From: Escherichia phage vB_VIPECOTPH05B
DNA: 44,015 bases
Sequence record: PQ429080.1
Strand: one strand, 5' to 3'
The notes under the pieces were generated by a model, which saw nothing but the letters and a program-made list of their open reading frames with translations, did not search any database and was not told the origin of the DNA. The position numbers and the translations under genes were made by a program. Below are positions 1 to 43,499 of the stretch, one piece after another (within the stretch, counting starts at the first letter, position 1; every line of letters starts with the position of its first letter).

Positions 1-1857
1 TTATCTTCTTCCTCTATGTTGTTTACCTCTGCCCCGGCTCTGCAGCCGAGCAGCTACACCCCGAAGGCCCTTAGACACTTTGCTCTGTGCCCAATCCAAC
101 GGGTTCTCAATGAAGGCCCGAGCCATCTTCTCAGACTCACGCTCAGCCACTACTTTCTCGTCTTCCACCAGGTGCCCGTTCAGCGTAGCCACCATCATGG
201 CGATTGCGTCTGCTCGGTCATCCTTAGCCAGGCTACCGCGGTCGTACGTGATACCAGCCAACTGTGTGAACGCAGAGTACAGCCAACGTCTATCGCGGGA
301 GTACGCCATACAGGTACTGATATCGTCGTGAACCGCACGCTCATGCACCACCAGGCGGTGACGGCGAGTAACTGGGCTGATTGTGTCGATTATACGACGC
401 TCTTTCTGCGTGGAGTTGTTCAGGTCCCTTACACCGATACCGGCGAGACGTCGCTCCCGTAACCGGTTCAGGATAAGCATAGACACGGTGCCGTGCCCCA
501 TGTTGCTCTCCACCACCATATCCGGGATGTCTAACTCTACGCACAGGTCAATCAGTTTATCAATGTTCTCTTCGCTGATACCTCCTTGGAAGCCGCCTAC
601 GGAGAATAGGTGGATGTACGAGTTCGCAGCACCACCAGCAGCGTAGGACACTTCGTCTCCGCCACAACCAGCCGGGTCCACCACCAGCACCTTATGCTGG
701 TACGGCAGGTGCATATCCCCGTAGAATGCTGGGAAGTACATCTGCTGACCCATAATCCCCTCATGCTCGTGCTGGTACAGGTACCGGCGGTCTGCAATGT
801 AAGAGAACGTCTCGGGAGAGGAATCCTGACTGCCTGAGTAAACCAGCATATCCGAAAGCTTGATGCGTGTACGCATCTGGTCGGACAGGGTGGTATCGAG
901 CATGTACTGTAGCTGGAAGCCCTCCGGACCGAAGTCCAGCTCCTTCTCAATCAGTGCATCCTCATCATAGCGCCCAGTGTCTGTGCTCTCGCCTAGCGTC
1001 CCGTCGACGCCGAAGCCGGTGCGTTTATAGCCGCGCTCAATAAGCTCCAGTATATAAGGAGCAAGTGTACTTCCATATCGCTCTTCCATTTCAACAGATG
1101 GAATGCGCCCAGGCCACACGCGGACCTCAAAGCCACGTCCCGGCAGGGTTTTATAGATGCTGTCCTTGGTCTGCGGTGTGCCAAGGTACAGTATGTCCCC
1201 ATGCGTACAGATAGCTGCGAAGTCCTTCGAAATCATCAGCAGCTGCTCACGCTGGGTTTGCGTTAAGCCGTTCTTGGTGGTCTCGATATCGTCTGGAATC
1301 AGCAGGTCCGCACGCTTCCCCTGCAGGGATGCAGTGATACCTACACAGGCCACGCTGGCGGACTTATCCAGTGGTTTCAGGTCGCAGTTGACATCATAAC
1401 CTTCGAATGAAGTACGGTCCCCACGAGTAGGGTCAGCCTTCAAGTAGCACAGCAGTGGCCAGGTTTCCAACATACGAATGATTAGGTTCGCTACATCGGA
1501 CGCCTGCTTCTCTGCACCAGACACAATCAGAATACGGCAGGATTGGTCCTGGATAAGCCTCCAGACGGCATAGAGTGCAGCCAGTGTAGACTTAGCTTCA
1601 CCACGCTGTGCGGCCACCATGCGCTTCCTAGGGCCCTTCTGCATGTACTCTGCAATGTCGGCCTGCATGTCCGTCAGCGTAAAACCCAGGAATCGCATAC
1701 CGATGTACGCGAATTCCCGGAAGTCACTTAACGCAGCGGCCATCATCATCGCGATGTCCTCGCGCTCCTCTTTGGGAATACTGCGCGGATTCGCACTATA
1801 ACCAGTAAGTTTCTGGTTGAGCATGCGCAGTCTTCGCGCAGTCTTCACCGATACCAT
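1..1857 (-). CDS. Terminase large subunit (T7 gp19-like packaging ATPase/nuclease)
   Basis: 618 aa; ATPase-like N-terminal half and nuclease-like C-terminal half typical of T7-group large terminases; last gene of the structural block; stop codon (TAA) occupies window positions 3..1. Confidence 0.88.
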   Translation of the reverse strand: MVSVKTARRLRMLNQKLTGYSANPRSIPKEEREDIAMMMAAALSDFREFAYIGMRFLGFTLTDMQADIAEYMQKGPRKRMVAAQRGEAKSTLAALYAVWRLIQDQSCRILIVSGAEKQASDVANLIIRMLETWPLLCYLKADPTRGDRTSFEGYDVNCDLKPLDKSASVACVGITASLQGKRADLLIPDDIETTKNGLTQTQREQLLMISKDFAAICTHGDILYLGTPQTKDSIYKTLPGRGFEVRVWPGRIPSVEMEERYGSTLAPYILELIERGYKRTGFGVDGTLGESTDTGRYDEDALIEKELDFGPEGFQLQYMLDTTLSDQMRTRIKLSDMLVYSGSQDSSPETFSYIADRRYLYQHEHEGIMGQQMYFPAFYGDMHLPYQHKVLVVDPAGCGGDEVSYAAGGAANSYIHLFSVGGFQGGISEENIDKLIDLCVELDIPDMVVESNMGHGTVSMLILNRLRERRLAGIGVRDLNNSTQKERRIIDTISPVTRRHRLVVHERAVHDDISTCMAYSRDRRWLYSAFTQLAGITYDRGSLAKDDRADAIAMMVATLNGHLVEDEKVVAERESEKMARAFIENPLDWAQSKVSKGLRGVAARLQSRGRGKQHRGRR

Positions 1858-2159
1858 TAGACAATTCCTTCTAGTAAGTCCTCAGAGTCTGAACCACCAA
1901 CTTTATTTAGAATCTCTTGCTTACGCGCCTCTCTGCGCGCCGCCAGTTCGTCATCGAACTCGTCACGAAGGTCCTGCATCTCCTCGGAATCTGCATCCGC
2001 GGTAATGTCATTGTCCTTCAAGAACTTAGCGATAACTGATTTATCTGCGGCGGGGAGCGGCACCTCATCTTCCTTAGACTGCTTGATTTCTTCAATCAAG
2101 GCCTCGGTGAACATGCGGTGCAGCTCCGAGAGGCGACTGCGTTTAGCCGCCCCTGCCAT
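1857..2159 (-). CDS. Terminase small subunit (gp18-like)
   Basis: 100 aa, charged and helical, immediately upstream of the large terminase; its TAA stop overlaps the large-terminase ATG (TAATG). Assigned by position and size. Confidence 0.55.
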   Translation of the reverse strand: MAGAAKRSRLSELHRMFTEALIEEIKQSKEDEVPLPAADKSVIAKFLKDNDITADADSEEMQDLRDEFDDELAARREARKQEILNKVGGSDSEDLLEGIV

Positions 2160-2183
2160 AATTATACCTCGTGGTTGATGCTA

Positions 2184-4430
2184 CTACATTTTAACTTTTA
2201 CAAACCCGTTAGCGTCCCTATACAGCCGCCCAGCAACTGTCGGTACTGTGTCGGTCAGTGATGGGAACGATACGTCATCGTCTGCACTAAACAATCCACT
2301 GGCGCTTATGTTTGCAAATTGCACATCACCAGCATTTATGGAGAATTCAGGCATTGTCAAGTTCGCTCCTAACCTGTTAGTGGAGTACTGGGGTGACATC
2401 ACGAACAGGTGCTCGTTTGTGGGAATGCTGCCTGTGATGATAGTACCCACCCCGCTAACCCCCGATACATTCAAGTCACCCTGTATATTGATGATGTTGC
2501 GCCCCGCGCTGCCAACATAGTTTATAAACTTACACCCGTATACGTAGGCATTAAACGAGCAGTTTTTTACCTGAGAAGAGGCGTCAGTACCCAATTGCAG
2601 CGCGTGCACAGCCGTAGCTGGCGTACTGTTCATTGGCGCCCCAACAAATCCGTGGAACATGTTAGCATCGCTAGCCATAATAACAGCTGCGCCCGCTTGC
2701 CAGTTCGAATACACTCGGGTATTTATTACGGAGTTTCTAGCACCCTCAAAATACACCTGAGCGCTTGCTGCGCCCTCAAAATGGCAGTTGCTAATAAAGG
2801 TGTCGTAGCCTGCCACGTACAGCCCGTAGCGCATACGGTTACTGTATAGAGGTGTCACGTTGGCATCCCCGAAAGCCCACACATGCATCTGAGAGCCGCG
2901 AGTACCCCCACCACCACCATAACGGATACCATCATAGGTGTTGTGTGCTAGCAAACCTGCGCTACGCACCATCAAATGGTCTGATTGGTTGTCGGAAGAA
3001 CCACCAATAACTATACCATGTTGCCCAACCATATCTACTCGGATATCCGAGTACTTGCTTGGAGCCATGTATTTTATACTGGTATTACCCCTGCCCCCCA
3101 GGTTTACCCCCACGCCTCTGCAGTACCCAGCACGGATGCCTTTTAGATTTGTACCCGCCCCGTAAATCCGGAGGCACTCAGTATGCGACCGAGTATTTTC
3201 AGCGGTCCCATCCCAACCTCCCTCAATTATAAGGTCCTCTATGTAGATGGAATTCACCATAGCCGAGGGCACGTTTACCGTAAGATAATCTCCGGCTGGC
3301 GCGTTGCGCGACTTAACTATAGCATCATCCCAACTGCTTAAAGCCAAAACCCTAGAGATGCCTTCCACCCCAACAACTTTTACGCTGTCAGGTAAAATCC
3401 AGGGGCCGGACGTGGCGTAGGTTTTGGGCCCCAGATAGATTGGGAGGGACAGGCTCGCAGCGTATTCCGCAGCCGAGTTTAGGGCTGCAATGTCATCTGT
3501 GACCCCATCCCCGACGGCCCCAAACTGTTCCGGAGTTATAAACCACAGTACCAGCTTAGGTATAATTGAACCCGCTTTATAGTCTAGCGCGGACTGTACT
3601 GTGCCGCCCTGCGAAGTTCCAATGTAACCGGCACCAGACGAGCTGCTCAGCATGGCGAGTATATTGGCTAACGCAGACGTATCTGCCTCTGTGTCTATGC
3701 CAATAGTACAATCCACCAAGGTGCCCGCCGGTAGTACTGAGGTGAATTTAATAGACCCATCAATGACATCGTAAGAGTACCCAGCTGTCTGGGTTACACC
3801 ATTTACGCGAACCTTAGCCTTAGTGAAAGGCATGCCGGGAGTTACGGTATCCGTAGCAGTTGTCAGTACAGTCCACCAAGGGAAGCTGTTAGTGTTTGCA
3901 TTGAAGTGAGTCTGCTCCAGATTCACTATACGCGTATCCAGTTCAGCGTCAGCAGCCTCACGAGCAGCTGCCTCAGCATCTACTCGCACATCCAGCCGGG
4001 CATCCCCGGCATCGACGTATTGCTTGTTCGCAGCGTCCTGTGCATCTACTGGGTCGCCCAGGTTCGTGATGCGGTAACGATGCATATTAATGTCGCCATA
4101 GAAGCCTTCGATATAGCGGCCCTCAACCAGCTCTTGAGCCAGGTGCAGGAGCTGCATATTCTGGGTATCTACGTTTACTTCGATGAACGGAGCACCACTA
4201 GCAAATTCAATGTAGAGGTACTCTCGTTCAGTCTTACGAATGAGCAGTACCTCCGTCTCTGCAGATAGCGCCGAATTCAGTCGAATATTGGTGGAGCTGG
4301 TCCAAGTAAAGGCGGTGGTCTCGACGCCATCCAAATAAACGTGAATATAGGACTTATCCAGGTACTCAATATCGCACTGGATATCCTGAGTACCTGCAGG
4401 CTTTACCGACTCTTGCCAGCTGAATGCCAT
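2184..4430 (-). CDS. Tail fiber / tailspike protein (T7 gp17-like N-terminal adaptor plus beta-helix-like C-terminal domain)
   Basis: 748 aa; N-terminal about 150 aa resembles the conserved gp17 tail-attachment domain; the remainder is Gly/Asn/Ser/Thr-rich in a way typical of right-handed beta-helix receptor-binding or depolymerase domains. Confidence 0.75.
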   Translation of the reverse strand: MAFSWQESVKPAGTQDIQCDIEYLDKSYIHVYLDGVETTAFTWTSSTNIRLNSALSAETEVLLIRKTEREYLYIEFASGAPFIEVNVDTQNMQLLHLAQELVEGRYIEGFYGDINMHRYRITNLGDPVDAQDAANKQYVDAGDARLDVRVDAEAAAREAADAELDTRIVNLEQTHFNANTNSFPWWTVLTTATDTVTPGMPFTKAKVRVNGVTQTAGYSYDVIDGSIKFTSVLPAGTLVDCTIGIDTEADTSALANILAMLSSSSGAGYIGTSQGGTVQSALDYKAGSIIPKLVLWFITPEQFGAVGDGVTDDIAALNSAAEYAASLSLPIYLGPKTYATSGPWILPDSVKVVGVEGISRVLALSSWDDAIVKSRNAPAGDYLTVNVPSAMVNSIYIEDLIIEGGWDGTAENTRSHTECLRIYGAGTNLKGIRAGYCRGVGVNLGGRGNTSIKYMAPSKYSDIRVDMVGQHGIVIGGSSDNQSDHLMVRSAGLLAHNTYDGIRYGGGGGTRGSQMHVWAFGDANVTPLYSNRMRYGLYVAGYDTFISNCHFEGAASAQVYFEGARNSVINTRVYSNWQAGAAVIMASDANMFHGFVGAPMNSTPATAVHALQLGTDASSQVKNCSFNAYVYGCKFINYVGSAGRNIINIQGDLNVSGVSGVGTIITGSIPTNEHLFVMSPQYSTNRLGANLTMPEFSINAGDVQFANISASGLFSADDDVSFPSLTDTVPTVAGRLYRDANGFVKVKM

Positions 4431-40461: not shown

Positions 40462-40494
40462 GCAAAAAGGGTAAGCAGACCCCTAAAGGTCTGC
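40462..40494 (-). terminator. Possible terminator-like hairpin at the 3' end of the HNH gene
   Basis: GCAGACC-6 nt loop-GGTCTGC stem overlapping the HNH stop codon, followed on the minus transcript by UUACCCUUUUUG. Confidence 0.3.
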
Positions 40495-40869
40495 GTGCAG
40501 TAAGCTATTGTAATCCCCATAGGTTACGTCGAACTCTCGCCAGTTAGTGTCGTAGTCCGGACTAGCCAATAACTCCTCTTTTGTGAAACATCTCCCCTCC
40601 TTAATCTGCGCTAGGTGAATGGCGCGGTGAGTGTCGGCGCTAACCAATATCAGGTTATCAAAGGCGCAGTTAAGACGGTTACTGTCACAGTGATGTACAT
40701 GGTAGCCAGAGCCGTAGCTAGTGATACCCAGTGCATCCATAACCACGGCTCTATGCAGCGCCATAGTCCTACGGTCCTTTTTACCGTTCTTACGTATACA
40801 CGCTGGACCAGCACCGTTAATCACTGGATAGCCCTCTTTATCAACCACAATCTTAAATGTTCTAGCCAC
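40483..40869 (-). CDS. HNH endonuclease (third HNH gene in the window)
   Basis: 128 aa; HVHHCDSNRLNCAFDNLILVSADTHRAIH motif; apparent GTG start with TAAGGAG 8 nt upstream; flanked by the two longest ORF-free stretches. Confidence 0.7.
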   Translation of the reverse strand: MARTFKIVVDKEGYPVINGAGPACIRKNGKKDRRTMALHRAVVMDALGITSYGSGYHVHHCDSNRLNCAFDNLILVSADTHRAIHLAQIKEGRCFTKEELLASPDYDTNWREFDVTYGDYNSLLHADL

Positions 40870-40879
40870 AACAATAACT

Positions 40880-41694
40880 CCTTACATAGTGATGAGTAGC
40901 GTAACCATAGCGACGATATCCCGGAGGGATAGGAGCGGAGGTTACAAGATTCTAGGGATAGCAGCCTACTGCGTAGGCACAGGGCTATCCTAGTGAATAC
41001 CTAGTAGGGACTAGTAAGGACTAGTATTAAGTAGTGTGTATATAGTGCCCTAAAACCCTCCTACTCCGGTTACTTCATTTCATAATAGCTTTCGAATGAA
41101 AGTAAGAGCAAAGGGATAGCATTGGGATAGCGCTGGGATAGCGGCAGAGTGTGGATGTGCGCCCTAGTGGGGAGCGCGCAGCGTAGCATATAATTAGCAC
41201 AATGTAAAGCCCCAAGGATAGCCAGTGGATAGCCTAGTGCATACTAGGGATAGCACTAGGGATAGCACCACAGCGCACTAGCTGGCCCACTAGGCAGGCA
41301 CAAAATAAGCAAGGCAGAGCGCACCCCTATGGCCCACAGGGAGCGCACAGGGAGCGCCTAGTGAACGCACAGGGATAGCACCAGTGCCCCATAGAGCGCA
41401 CAGGAAGCCCTACAAGGCACGCACAGGCAAAGCCATAGGGTAGCACTAGCAATAGCCCTAGCGCAGCGCAGAGAGCCACTGAGGCCCACTGGTGCGCCCT
41501 AGCAGGCCCACCCAGTGCCCCCCCCCTAAATTGGCGCTAGGCACCCCCTATGGGGGCAATTGGGCGCGCTGAGGGTGAGGGACCCTGCCGCGTGAGTATA
41601 ATAAATTTCGGGTTCAGGTATAGACGTGCACCCGGATAGCCCCAGATAGCCCCACATAGACGCCCAGTGCTTACTCTAGTACTTACCCTAGCAC
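40880..41694. repeat. ORF-free repeat-rich region: at least 10 copies of GGATAGC plus CACAGGG/CACTAGG motifs, a C9 homopolymer and short tandem repeats; probable genome-terminus region
   Basis: No ORF of 60 aa or more on either strand across about 800 bp; GGATAGC at about 40956, 41114, 41125, 41136, 41216, 41227, 41248, 41259, 41373, 41634 (first three tandem copies spaced 11 bp); C-run at 41518..41526. Confidence 0.6.
41059..41080 (-). promoter_or_regulatory. Conserved element AAATGAAGTAACCGGAGTAGGA, copy 1 (candidate phage-RNAP promoter)
   Basis: 21 of 22 nt identical to the copy after the RNAP gene; lies in the repeat region upstream of the HNH gene. Confidence 0.35.
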
Positions 41695-41880
41695 TTATTC
41701 TGCGATAGCCCCGGAGGCCCGCAGGGACGCTAACAGGGCCGCCAGAGTAACCGCCAGTGCCTCTGCCGTAGTATCGGTAGCATCAGCTACAGCAACCCCT
41801 TGCAGTACCCCGCCGATAGAGTCCGTAGTAGCTTCCGGTAATACCGGTGCCTTTGCTTGTACAAGCTCAACCAGTGCCAT
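41695..41880 (-). CDS. Hypothetical small protein (61 aa) at the distal end of the lysis cassette
   Basis: ATG 1 nt after the endolysin stop; Ala/Val/Thr-rich with a hydrophobic C-terminal stretch; no lipobox. Confidence 0.4.
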   Translation of the reverse strand: MALVELVQAKAPVLPEATTDSIGGVLQGVAVADATDTTAEALAVTLAALLASLRASGAIAE

Positions 41881-41881
41881 A

Positions 41882-42490
41882 TTAACCTCCTACCCCTTTA
41901 AGCGCAGCGATTGCTGCATTCACATTCTTGTACTGGTTCCCAATAGCTTTGCTCTGCCACTGCCTGCGCTCCCATAGGCCCCAGCACACTTTATTGCGCT
42001 GCCCGTTAACGTATTGGGAACAGTCGAAGGTCCAGCGGTTGCCGCCCTTGTACACCCAGCCAGTGCCGGGGGACTTCTGCTGGTACTTGCTAATATAGCG
42101 CCAGTCCAGCACAGCCTTCGCGGCCGATGCATAATCAAGGCTTTTGAGGTGGCGCTTCACGGAGCTTCCGTTGAAACCCGCCACGCCTACGTTGTACGTG
42201 AAGTCCAGGGCACCTAGCAGGGCCACGTCAGAGAGCTGCATAGGAAGCCCGTCAAGAGCTTTTGCATGCTCCCCTGCTGATTGTATCAGTTGCTTCTGAC
42301 AATCGCTCAGCGTGGCTCTCTGGCCCATTTTGACGCCCTTTGTCTCACCGTAGCAGATAGTCGGGACACCGGCGCTATCCTTATAGGCAGTAAGGCTCAA
42401 CCCCTCGTTATGCTGCACCACCCCGGTAATAGCGCCGCCAAGCATAGTGGCCCCCGTAAGGGCCGCCACAACCTTAGTCCTTAAACTCAT
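41882..42490 (-). CDS. SAR endolysin, T4-lysozyme-type muramidase (GH24-like)
   Basis: 202 aa; weakly hydrophobic Gly/Ala-rich N-terminus (KVVAALTGATMLGGAITGVV) followed by the catalytic E-x8-D-x5-T pattern (NEGLSLTAYKDSAGVPT); start overlaps the holin 3' end. Confidence 0.85.
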   Translation of the reverse strand: MSLRTKVVAALTGATMLGGAITGVVQHNEGLSLTAYKDSAGVPTICYGETKGVKMGQRATLSDCQKQLIQSAGEHAKALDGLPMQLSDVALLGALDFTYNVGVAGFNGSSVKRHLKSLDYASAAKAVLDWRYISKYQQKSPGTGWVYKGGNRWTFDCSQYVNGQRNKVCWGLWERRQWQSKAIGNQYKNVNAAIAALKGVGG

Positions 42491-42725
42491 ATTTAATAGT
42501 CCCCTTACGTGCCTGCTCCTCTAGGAGCTTGAATGTACGCCGCTTGTAATACGCATTCCACGCCAGGGTTAGCACTGCGCACACCGTCGCAGTGATGAAG
42601 CTGATAGTGCTCCAGTTCCAGCTCATTACTTCTGCCACCCAACCTCCAGATACAGCCGCTGTAGTGGCTGTAGTCCCTGCCTTGGTGATTACGTCAGTAG
42701 ACACTACATCCGAAACCTTAATCAT
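42474..42725 (-). CDS. Holin (pinholin-like)
   Basis: About 83 aa from first ATG; weakly hydrophobic first segment, strong TM helix (WSTISFITATVCAVLTLAW), charged C-terminal tail; immediately upstream of and overlapping the SAR endolysin. Confidence 0.55.
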   Translation of the reverse strand: MIKVSDVVSTDVITKAGTTATTAAVSGGWVAEVMSWNWSTISFITATVCAVLTLAWNAYYKRRTFKLLEEQARKGTIKYEFKD

Positions 42726-42733
42726 GTACACCT

Positions 42734-43099
42734 CTATACAATTATCAGTGACTGTGAGAACACAGGCATCGGATAGTTAGTATCTTCCGCCGGGTAGAAG
42801 CCGTACCAGGGGCACCATATATCTCGGTTAGGGTACAGTATCACCCAGTGACTGTGACTTGTACCGCGTTCGCATCTAGCCCTCGTTATACGAGTAGCAT
42901 TCGATTTCGACCACCACACCCTGCCCAGACTCACCCCGCAGGTCCTCGCCACTTTAATTAAATCGCTAAAGGTGCTGGCATCTGTAGGACGTTTAAGGGT
43001 GCTTAGCCATGCGGCCTCAATATCCTCATAAGGGATATCTAAAAGGGATGACAGCGCGGCCGCGCCGCAATCGTCGTCCTTACGTTGTAGCGTCTGCAT
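42734..43099 (-). CDS. Small cysteine-peptidase-like protein (papain/C39-like Cys...His...Asp arrangement) in the lysis cassette
   Basis: About 121 aa from ATG with AAGGAA 8 nt upstream; N-terminal DDDCGAAALSSLL and downstream HSHWVILYPNRD resemble the Cys and His/Asp motifs of C39-type peptidases. Motif-level call only. Confidence 0.45.
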   Translation of the reverse strand: MQTLQRKDDDCGAAALSSLLDIPYEDIEAAWLSTLKRPTDASTFSDLIKVARTCGVSLGRVWWSKSNATRITRARCERGTSHSHWVILYPNRDIWCPWYGFYPAEDTNYPMPVFSQSLIIV

Positions 43100-43499
43100 C
43101 TTCTCGTTCCTTACTTTTACCAAACACTCTGCGCATCACCAGGATGACCACTAGGAAGATAAGTGGAATACTGGCCCCGGCTAATCCCGCCAGGATTAGA
43201 CTGTAGCTGTCGTTGTTTACTACCTGTAAACGGTCAGCCTGGATAGTACCAGTACTAATAGTCTGGACCTGCTTCTTACTAGAAGTGTCCAAAGTCCCAA
43301 CTGTAGAATCGGTTACGTCAGTCTTATTGGTGGTGCTGGCATCCACCTTGTTATTCAAGCCAACGGTTTGTTTGGTGTTCTCGGCACCAACCTGAGCAGA
43401 TACATCCGGCTTAGAACCAACTAAGCCGGTGAGTGCAGAGGTCGCCGAGCAACCAGTCAGAGTAACCGCGAGCAGTAACCCAGCGACCAGTTTACGCAT
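43080..43499 (-). CDS. Candidate unimolecular spanin: outer-membrane lipoprotein with C-terminal transmembrane helix
   Basis: 139 aa; lipoprotein signal with lipobox LTGC and Ser at +2; Ser/Thr-rich middle of about 80 aa; C-terminal TM helix (LILAGLAGASIPLIFLVVILVM) followed by RRVFGKSKERE; no Rz/Rz1 pair seen elsewhere. Confidence 0.5.
   Translation of the reverse strand: MRKLVAGLLLAVTLTGCSATSALTGLVGSKPDVSAQVGAENTKQTVGLNNKVDASTTNKTDVTDSTVGTLDTSSKKQVQTISTGTIQADRLQVVNNDSYSLILAGLAGASIPLIFLVVILVMRRVFGKSKEREDADATT

Follow-up and report, generated by a model that had tools for sequence, protein, structure and literature searches.

What is a gene for a small cysteine peptidase doing between the spanin and holin genes of a phage? 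The question is raised by Escherichia phage vB_VIPECOTPH05B (sequence record PQ429080.1), whose 44,015 nucleotides (nt) are referred to below as the window. On the minus strand, positions 42734-43099 (stop codon 42734-42736 included) encode a stand-alone C39-family cysteine peptidase of 121 amino acids (aa). This open reading frame (ORF) was judged to be real: it runs from an ATG at 43099 to a TAG at 42736-42734 and, by direct reading of the sequence, is preceded on the same strand by a Shine-Dalgarno motif (AAGGA, 43108-43112) that lies inside the 3' end of the spanin gene, 8 nt before the ATG. In GenBank the same coding sequence is annotated as a hypothetical protein. On balance, we favor the view that the product is a cytoplasmic accessory cysteine endopeptidase that is not part of the lysis machinery and that cuts a protein, probably of the host, at a Gly-Gly-type site.

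At the level of homology and predicted fold, the protein is a C39/papain-like peptidase. It matches the Pfam family Peptidase_C39 (PF03412) with an expectation value (E) of 5e-4 and 20.4-20.5 bits, the gathering cut-off being 22. The same family matches 5/5 close-family members (best E 6.9e-6), and several relatives carry precomputed PF03412 hits. An exhaustive HMMER search of 1.84 billion representatives returned only 25 relatives at E <= 1e-3, all of them small stand-alone proteins (101-169 aa). When the single protein was compared to the PDB with phmmer, nothing meaningful was found, and PCAT1 and ComA were reached by the family profile only. This profile, built from 28 sequences, matches the peptidase domains of PCAT1 (1.5e-7), ComA (2e-7) and LahT (5e-4) and, more weakly, the toxins Cpe1 of a type VI secretion system (T6SS; 2e-3) and StbD-CT (6e-3). 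The NCBIfam scan gave only weak matches to FapD (C39) in three of five relatives, and scans of PHROGs and PADLOC gave no family matching the peptidase. The AlphaFold2 model is confident (predicted local distance difference test, pLDDT, 97.4; predicted template-modeling score, pTM, 0.90) and displays the papain-like alpha+beta fold of C39 enzymes, in which the nucleophile heads a helix packed on an antiparallel sheet. The fold comparison is led by double-glycine leader peptidases and cytosolic C39 toxins rather than by wall hydrolases of the NlpC/P60 or CHAP type; Foldseek lists a CHAP domain only at a low rank (E 1.5), and deubiquitinases resemble the model far less than C39 enzymes do. Other small uncharacterized phage proteins in BFVD share the fold (TM score 0.79). 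An initial annotation, made from the sequence without database searches, had proposed a C39/papain-like cysteine peptidase with a catalytic Cys and His and had suggested structure prediction as a check; profile and fold evidence both agree with that proposal.

The active-site residues were located by alignment to PCAT1 and ComA (all codons on the minus strand). Gln5 (codon 43085-43087) stands six residues before the nucleophile, aligns with the PCAT1/ComA Gln at the oxyanion-hole position of C39 enzymes and is Q in 45 of the 46 family members. Its spacing to Cys11, Gln-x5-Cys, is identical to that of Gln21 and Cys27 in LahT (PMC6363468). Cys11 (43067-43069), the predicted nucleophile, is aligned to the catalytic Cys, starts helix 1 of the model (residues 11-20) and is equally well conserved (C in 45/46). 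His84 (42848-42850), the predicted general base, is aligned to the catalytic His, lies on a model strand (83-88) and forms the sole invariant column across the 46 sequences. The Cys and His/Asp motifs quoted in the initial annotation are present, with Cys11 and His84 in register with known catalytic residues. The Asp that it had singled out, that of "PNRD" (D93), lacks conservation across the family; the C39 catalytic Asp is instead aligned with Cys96 (42812-42814), followed by Pro97. In the hidden Markov model alignment "wcP" falls on the "ADP" of PCAT1, that is, on the C39 "DP" motif, and in the structural model Cys96 sits on a hairpin strand (94-96) adjoining the His strand.

Papain-like proteases are normally defined by Cys-His-Asp/Asn (PMC12136450). 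The third-triad Asp of C39 enzymes, Asn in some papain-like enzymes, is absent here and Cys96-Pro97 is found in its place; no precedent for a Cys-His-Cys triad was found in the literature searched. Across the family, column 96 holds Cys in 22/46, Asp in 23/46 and Asn in 1/46 sequences. Cys occurs in the whole close clade (18 sequences) and also in P0022, P0031, P0020 and P0021, while the nearest relatives of P0022 and P0031 carry Asp. This scattering of Cys among Asp-bearing relatives indicates that Asp and Cys were exchanged at least three times. With Cys96 at the third triad position, the enzyme would effectively be a Cys-His dyad backed by a thiol. We infer that it works as such a dyad and that residue 96 has a replaceable orienting role; a redox role of Cys96 is conceivable. 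Within a known protease family, the phage enzyme represents a diverged form that stands alone and has a Cys-His-Cys site; our literature searches found no study on a phage-encoded stand-alone C39 peptidase.

The presence of Cys96 instead of the canonical Asp would also suit a catalytically weak or inactive C39-like binding module which, like the C39-like domain of HlyB, sequesters but does not cleave a peptide partner that is helical or contains Gly-Gly, and one distant family member does carry Phe at the nucleophile position. However, known C39-like domains of this non-catalytic type have lost the catalytic Cys, whereas Cys11 is present and conserved here. Gln5, Cys11 and His84 are kept in 45-46 of the 46 members, under strong purifying selection. 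Moreover, the repeated interchange of Asp and Cys at position 96 while Cys11 and His84 stay suggests that the site is still used. We consider a pure binding role unlikely.

C39 peptidases are known as the leader-cleaving domains of bacteriocin exporters and, since 2025, also as cytosolic interbacterial toxins that cut GyrB/ParE. The phage protein was compared with both groups. The exporters, peptidase-containing ATP-binding cassette (ABC) transporters (PCAT) and ABC transporters for maturation and secretion (AMS), are represented by PCAT1, ComA PEP and LahT150. Like their peptidase domains, it has Gln-x5-Cys...His in register, an "xP" after the hairpin and a size close to the ~120-150 aa of the domain. 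In the exporters, however, the peptidase is fused to an ABC transporter, whereas here it is free, ends after the peptidase fold and is phage-encoded; their third residue is an Asp 16 residues after the His, while Cys96 follows His84 by 12 residues. A six-frame search of the window for a double-glycine leader peptide gave no credible candidate on the coding strand. A bifunctional PCAT/AMS exporter was ruled out, as the cassette contains no ABC transporter and no coding-strand leader-peptide ORF. Without a leader peptide or a transporter, the classical C39 task is absent here.

The toxins resemble the phage protein in another respect. Cpe1 (T6SS) and StbD-CT, of a contact-dependent inhibition (CDI) system, use the C39 fold as a soluble protease on a specific housekeeping protein in the cytosol of the target cell. 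They cut GyrB and ParE at a HAGG↓K loop (PMC12136450; bioRxiv 10.64898/2026.05.07.723447). They differ in carrying Asp where the phage peptidase has Cys, and in being linked to PAAR, VgrG, Rhs, CdiA or an entry domain and to an adjacent immunity gene, none of which is found here, where the neighbors are spanin and holin. On this architecture, a C39 polymorphic toxin of the Cpe1/StbD-CT type was rejected. In function, these free toxins are the closest analogy, and they set a precedent for a C39 protease that is free in the cytosol and has one specific host target.

Where would such an enzyme act? The peptidase sequence contains no signal peptide, signal-arrest-release (SAR) segment, transmembrane domain (TMD), lipobox or hydrophobic N-terminus, so that none of the membrane or periplasmic targeting features expected of a cassette component (TMD, SAR, signal peptide, lipobox) is present. 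As there is no targeting signal and the catalytic helix begins at residue 11, the peptidase should stay in the cytoplasm. This bears directly on the suggestion, made in the initial annotation, that the protein acts on the cell wall. An enzyme of papain fold that supports the endolysin as an amidase or endopeptidase, comparable to NlpC/P60, CHAP or pseudomurein endoisopeptidase, would be in line with the position of the gene inside the lysis cassette and with the low-ranking CHAP domain among the Foldseek matches. Yet without signal peptide, SAR segment or TMD the peptidase cannot reach the wall before lysis, and the holin here is a pinholin, a type that lets no folded protein through (PMC4411677). 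C39 leader peptidases head both the sequence and the fold matches, the protein lacks a wall-binding domain, and the homologues in other phages are not associated with lysis genes. An NlpC/P60 or CHAP peptidoglycan hydrolase was ruled out, there being no such Pfam match, CHAP only at the Foldseek value given above and no export signal. We regard a wall hydrolase in the wider sense as very improbable, and the suggested action on the wall was abandoned.

The distribution of the gene is informative as to its status. The whole window is 100% identical, in reverse orientation, to five Klebsiella phages from a single study (among them vB_VIPKPNTPH03; PQ505478-PQ505484), classified in Autographiviridae, Slopekvirinae, Drulisvirus. 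Among the 252 phage records matching the region, only these five identical VIPKPN genomes have the peptidase gene. Presence in the Drulisvirus cassette is therefore not genus-wide but limited to 5/252 records and one metagenomic contig. In a typical relative, phi1_146033, the peptidase is missing and the spanin gene overlaps the holin gene directly. A second Drulisvirus lineage, represented by a Logan contig (L006), has the peptidase in the same slot, with the order spanin, C39, holin, endolysin and 87.7% nucleotide identity to the cassette of the window. The two peptidase orthologues differ by 35 synonymous and 12 non-synonymous changes (synonymous divergence dS 0.62; ratio of non-synonymous to synonymous divergence dN/dS 0.07), which indicates that the peptidase is kept by purifying selection.

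Local blastn against the whole phi1_146033 genome and pairwise alignment delimited a mosaic segment without nucleotide similarity to this relative (42654-43131). It contains the spanin tail, the peptidase gene and the 5' end of the holin gene (~24 first codons). The C-terminal tail of the spanin is unlike that of relatives when aligned with phi1_146033. The holin 5' segment, searched as a 104-nt query by blastn against 50,697 phage records, was found only in peptidase-carrying genomes, and it is also present in L006. Such a linkage of peptidase, spanin tail and holin 5' end is the expected outcome of one recombination from a donor with the same gene order. In a composition test for foreign origin, the insert was not anomalous (GC content 51.6%, genome 53.8 +/- 3.0%).

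Homologues in other genomes were found in variable surroundings. The peptidase of Pantoea phage Nufs112 (ORF66, "C39 family peptidase"), a true member of the family, is 36.6% identical and has Cys at position 96. It is encoded at the right end of the genome, behind the tailspike, and the authors count it with the genes that the closest relatives of that phage do not share (PMC9915841). In T1-like contigs the homologue is the first gene of an early/replication operon running into the primase/helicase region, and holin and lysozyme lie several kb away. The narrower family alignment located five IMG/VR loci. In two IMG/VR contigs the homologue follows a helicase/HNH/ParB block or a DNA-repair exonuclease, and in one further contig it adjoins a DNA pol A module. 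Only in L008 does it come after an endolysin (GH108, plus tail genes), and this locus encodes the distant member P0036, with Phe as nucleophile. Small phage C39-like proteins such as Nufs112 ORF66 and the "Peptidase C39 domain-containing protein" of Bacillus phage vB_BcoS-136 are alike in size, fold and phage origin but are located elsewhere in their genomes; placement in a lysis cassette occurs only in the present lineage. Since the gene is rare, variable in context and missing from typical relatives, we assign it accessory status.

Some further features of these homologues were recorded. In P0036 (L008 6001-6405) Phe replaces the catalytic Cys while the His and Asp-Pro are kept, and from its sequence it is a probable pseudo-peptidase. 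Some T1-like homologues are called with a 14-residue N-terminal extension, which may be a start-codon miscall. An ~800-bp intergenic region precedes the T1-like homologue between divergently transcribed gene blocks (L007 5173-6001; also L004 and L005) and may be a regulatory or origin region. The most distant matches (11-12% identity; for example P0045, L017 4881-5294) are bacterial chromosomal genes with a conserved position between purD and a Sua5/YciO-family gene; this is a stand-alone C39-like protein in a housekeeping context, unrelated to phages.

Sporadic, mobile distribution over unrelated phages is typical of anti-defence genes. Together with the Gly-Gly specificity of the C39 family, it would agree with a counter-defence isopeptidase, a "deubiquitinase-like" enzyme cutting after the C-terminal Gly-Gly of bacterial ubiquitin-like conjugates, or cutting another immunity protein. 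The similarity of the fold to deubiquitinases is, however, far below that to C39, and neither PADLOC similarity nor linked genes point in this direction. In this specific form the idea is a long shot.

The neighborhood in the window has to be considered in turn. On the minus strand the cassette reads u-spanin, peptidase, holin, endolysin, that is, late lysis genes. The u-spanin gene (43080-43499, minus strand) was assigned by PHROG 1804 (E 5.9e-50) and encodes an LPAM lipobox and a C-terminal TMD. The holin (42474-42725, minus strand; PF04971, PHROG 20) is of the pinholin type, S21-like, with "VSGGW" in a SAR-like TMD1. The endolysin (41882-42490, minus strand) is a phage lysozyme (PF00959, E 2e-21; PHROG 7) with a SAR-like N-terminus. 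KP34-like phages are described as lysing with exactly three genes, u-spanin followed by pinholin and then SAR endolysin (PMC4411677). The flanking genes here are this standard set in its standard order; whereas spanin and holin overlap in the KP34-like (Drulisvirus) cassette, an unrelated fourth gene sits between them in the window. The initial annotation had stated that the peptidase gene overlaps both neighbors. The overlap with the spanin was confirmed, the 3' end of the spanin gene covering the peptidase start by 20 nt (43080-43099), but there is none with the holin, whose start (ATG 42725 or GTG 42731) lies downstream of the peptidase stop, with 8 nt between the stop and ATG 42725. The holin ribosome-binding site, GAGGTG, spans the peptidase stop codon.

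Other details of the cassette were also recorded. The endolysin start equivalent to that in GenBank is at 42469; an ATG farther upstream (42490) extends the SAR-like N-terminus by its positively charged beginning, MSLRTKV, and restores the holin/endolysin overlap known from relatives (42469-42490, minus strand). The annotated start is probably too short. A scan for promoters and terminators gave nothing convincing. The sole "terminator" within the peptidase gene is a GC-rich palindrome with a NotI site (GCGGCGCGGCCGCGC, 43051-43068, minus strand) that was flagged as terminator-like and covers the catalytic Cys codon; most likely it simply follows from encoding D-C-G-A-A-A.

Does the peptidase take part in lysis? 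It could be a regulator of the lysis clock that cuts the pinholin at or near the Gly-Gly of its SAR-like TMD1 (MIKVSDVVSTDVITKAGTTATTAAVSGG↓W, the arrow marking the cut), or the Gly-Gly in the SAR domain of the endolysin. In the first and most attractive version an inhibitory N-terminal segment of the holin would be removed and triggering advanced or sharpened. The gene does lie between spanin and holin, is translationally coupled through the 20-nt overlap and occupies the same slot in the diverged lineage L006, and the N-terminal variant of the holin is confined to peptidase-carrying phages. Cleavage at Gly-Gly is what C39 enzymes do (PMC6363468). The holin also belongs to the S21-like type (PF04971). 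TMD1 of the S21 pinholin is a dispensable negative regulator. Against this, about 250 Drulisviruses with the same cassette have no peptidase, and VSGGW is conserved in holins with and without an accompanying peptidase gene. The holin linkage can be explained by the single recombination event described above, and elsewhere, as in T1-like phages, the homologues are found either several kb from the lysis genes or in replication modules. The sequence ahead of the Gly-Gly in the holin departs from the leader pattern of hydrophobic residues at -4/-7/-12, and a Gly-Gly embedded in the membrane would be poorly accessible to a soluble protease. A lysis-clock regulator seems to us improbable, though worth keeping in mind. 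The processing of a lysis protein, as put forward in the initial annotation, was not upheld, given that its cassette relatives (~250) lack the gene and that homologues elsewhere lie outside lysis cassettes; at the least, the cassette does not need the peptidase, and what speaks for holin processing is circumstantial linkage. The boldest variants would be a fourth lysis-clock component that clips VSGG↓W (or another lysis-protein Gly-Gly), has co-evolved with the holin variant and uses an unprecedented Cys-His-Cys site, or a Gly-Gly counter-defence protease directed against an immunity protein or ubiquitin-like conjugate; we give this pair of scenarios little credence. The Cys-His-Cys site of such a lysis-clock protease could be redox-sensitive.

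Further features were noted downstream of the cassette. A 61-aa ORF directly downstream of the endolysin (41695-41880, minus strand) matches only the last ~53 positions of a head-fibre family (PF11133 / PHROG 20838) and looks like a C-terminal fragment or mini-protein. In L006 the slot after the endolysin is filled by a 600-aa ORF (1437-3239) without similarity to the window. Some 800 bp of the window (~40900-41690) contain no coding-strand ORF of at least 60 aa, only ORFs of 30-50 aa, and are 76.6% conserved with L006; this stretch may contain very small early genes, promoters or the physical end of the genome or its terminal repeat. An HNH endonuclease gene (40483-40869, minus strand) lies in another segment without nucleotide similarity to phi1_146033 (40479-40952), which is probably a mobile homing-endonuclease insertion.

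Taken together, these observations lead us back to the cytoplasmic accessory protease as the preferred interpretation. In this proposal, an accessory ("moron"-like) gene would have reached the Drulisvirus lineage by recombination, together with a new spanin tail and holin 5' end. It would share a transcript with the late lysis genes, be coupled to them in translation and be expressed late. The enzyme would use Cys11 as nucleophile and His84 as base, with Gln5 at the oxyanion-hole position and the thiol of Cys96 behind the Cys-His dyad. Its substrate would be a protein of the cytoplasm, most probably one of the host, cut at a Gly-Gly-type site in the service of host takeover or counter-defence. 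The data show a real gene under purifying selection, the fold, the conserved Gln/Cys/His, the exchange of Asp for Cys, the insertion and the changing surroundings of homologues; that the enzyme is active, prefers Gly-Gly, stays in the cytoplasm and has its target in the host is what we infer. Several points weigh against the proposal. The same cassette slot in both carrier Drulisvirus lineages, the coupled translation and the strict link to the holin N-terminal variant also fit a role in lysis; the similarity to the GyrB/ParE toxins is weaker than that to transporter C39 domains, and the target is suggested by analogy only; and without the canonical Asp, catalytic activity could be reduced or altered.

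The gene represents a rare, purely phage-borne and minimal stand-alone branch of C39 that moves between unrelated phages and in which the catalytic Asp has repeatedly been exchanged for Cys. With 121 aa and a Cys-His-Cys/Asp polymorphism, it offers a compact model for studying what the third triad residue does in papain-like proteases. In Drulisvirus candidates for phage therapy, this accessory gene encodes an enzyme that has gone unannotated, and it should be given a functional label. More generally, it suggests that phages employ site-specific proteolysis within the host in a manner not yet characterized, whether for takeover, counter-defence or the timing of lysis.
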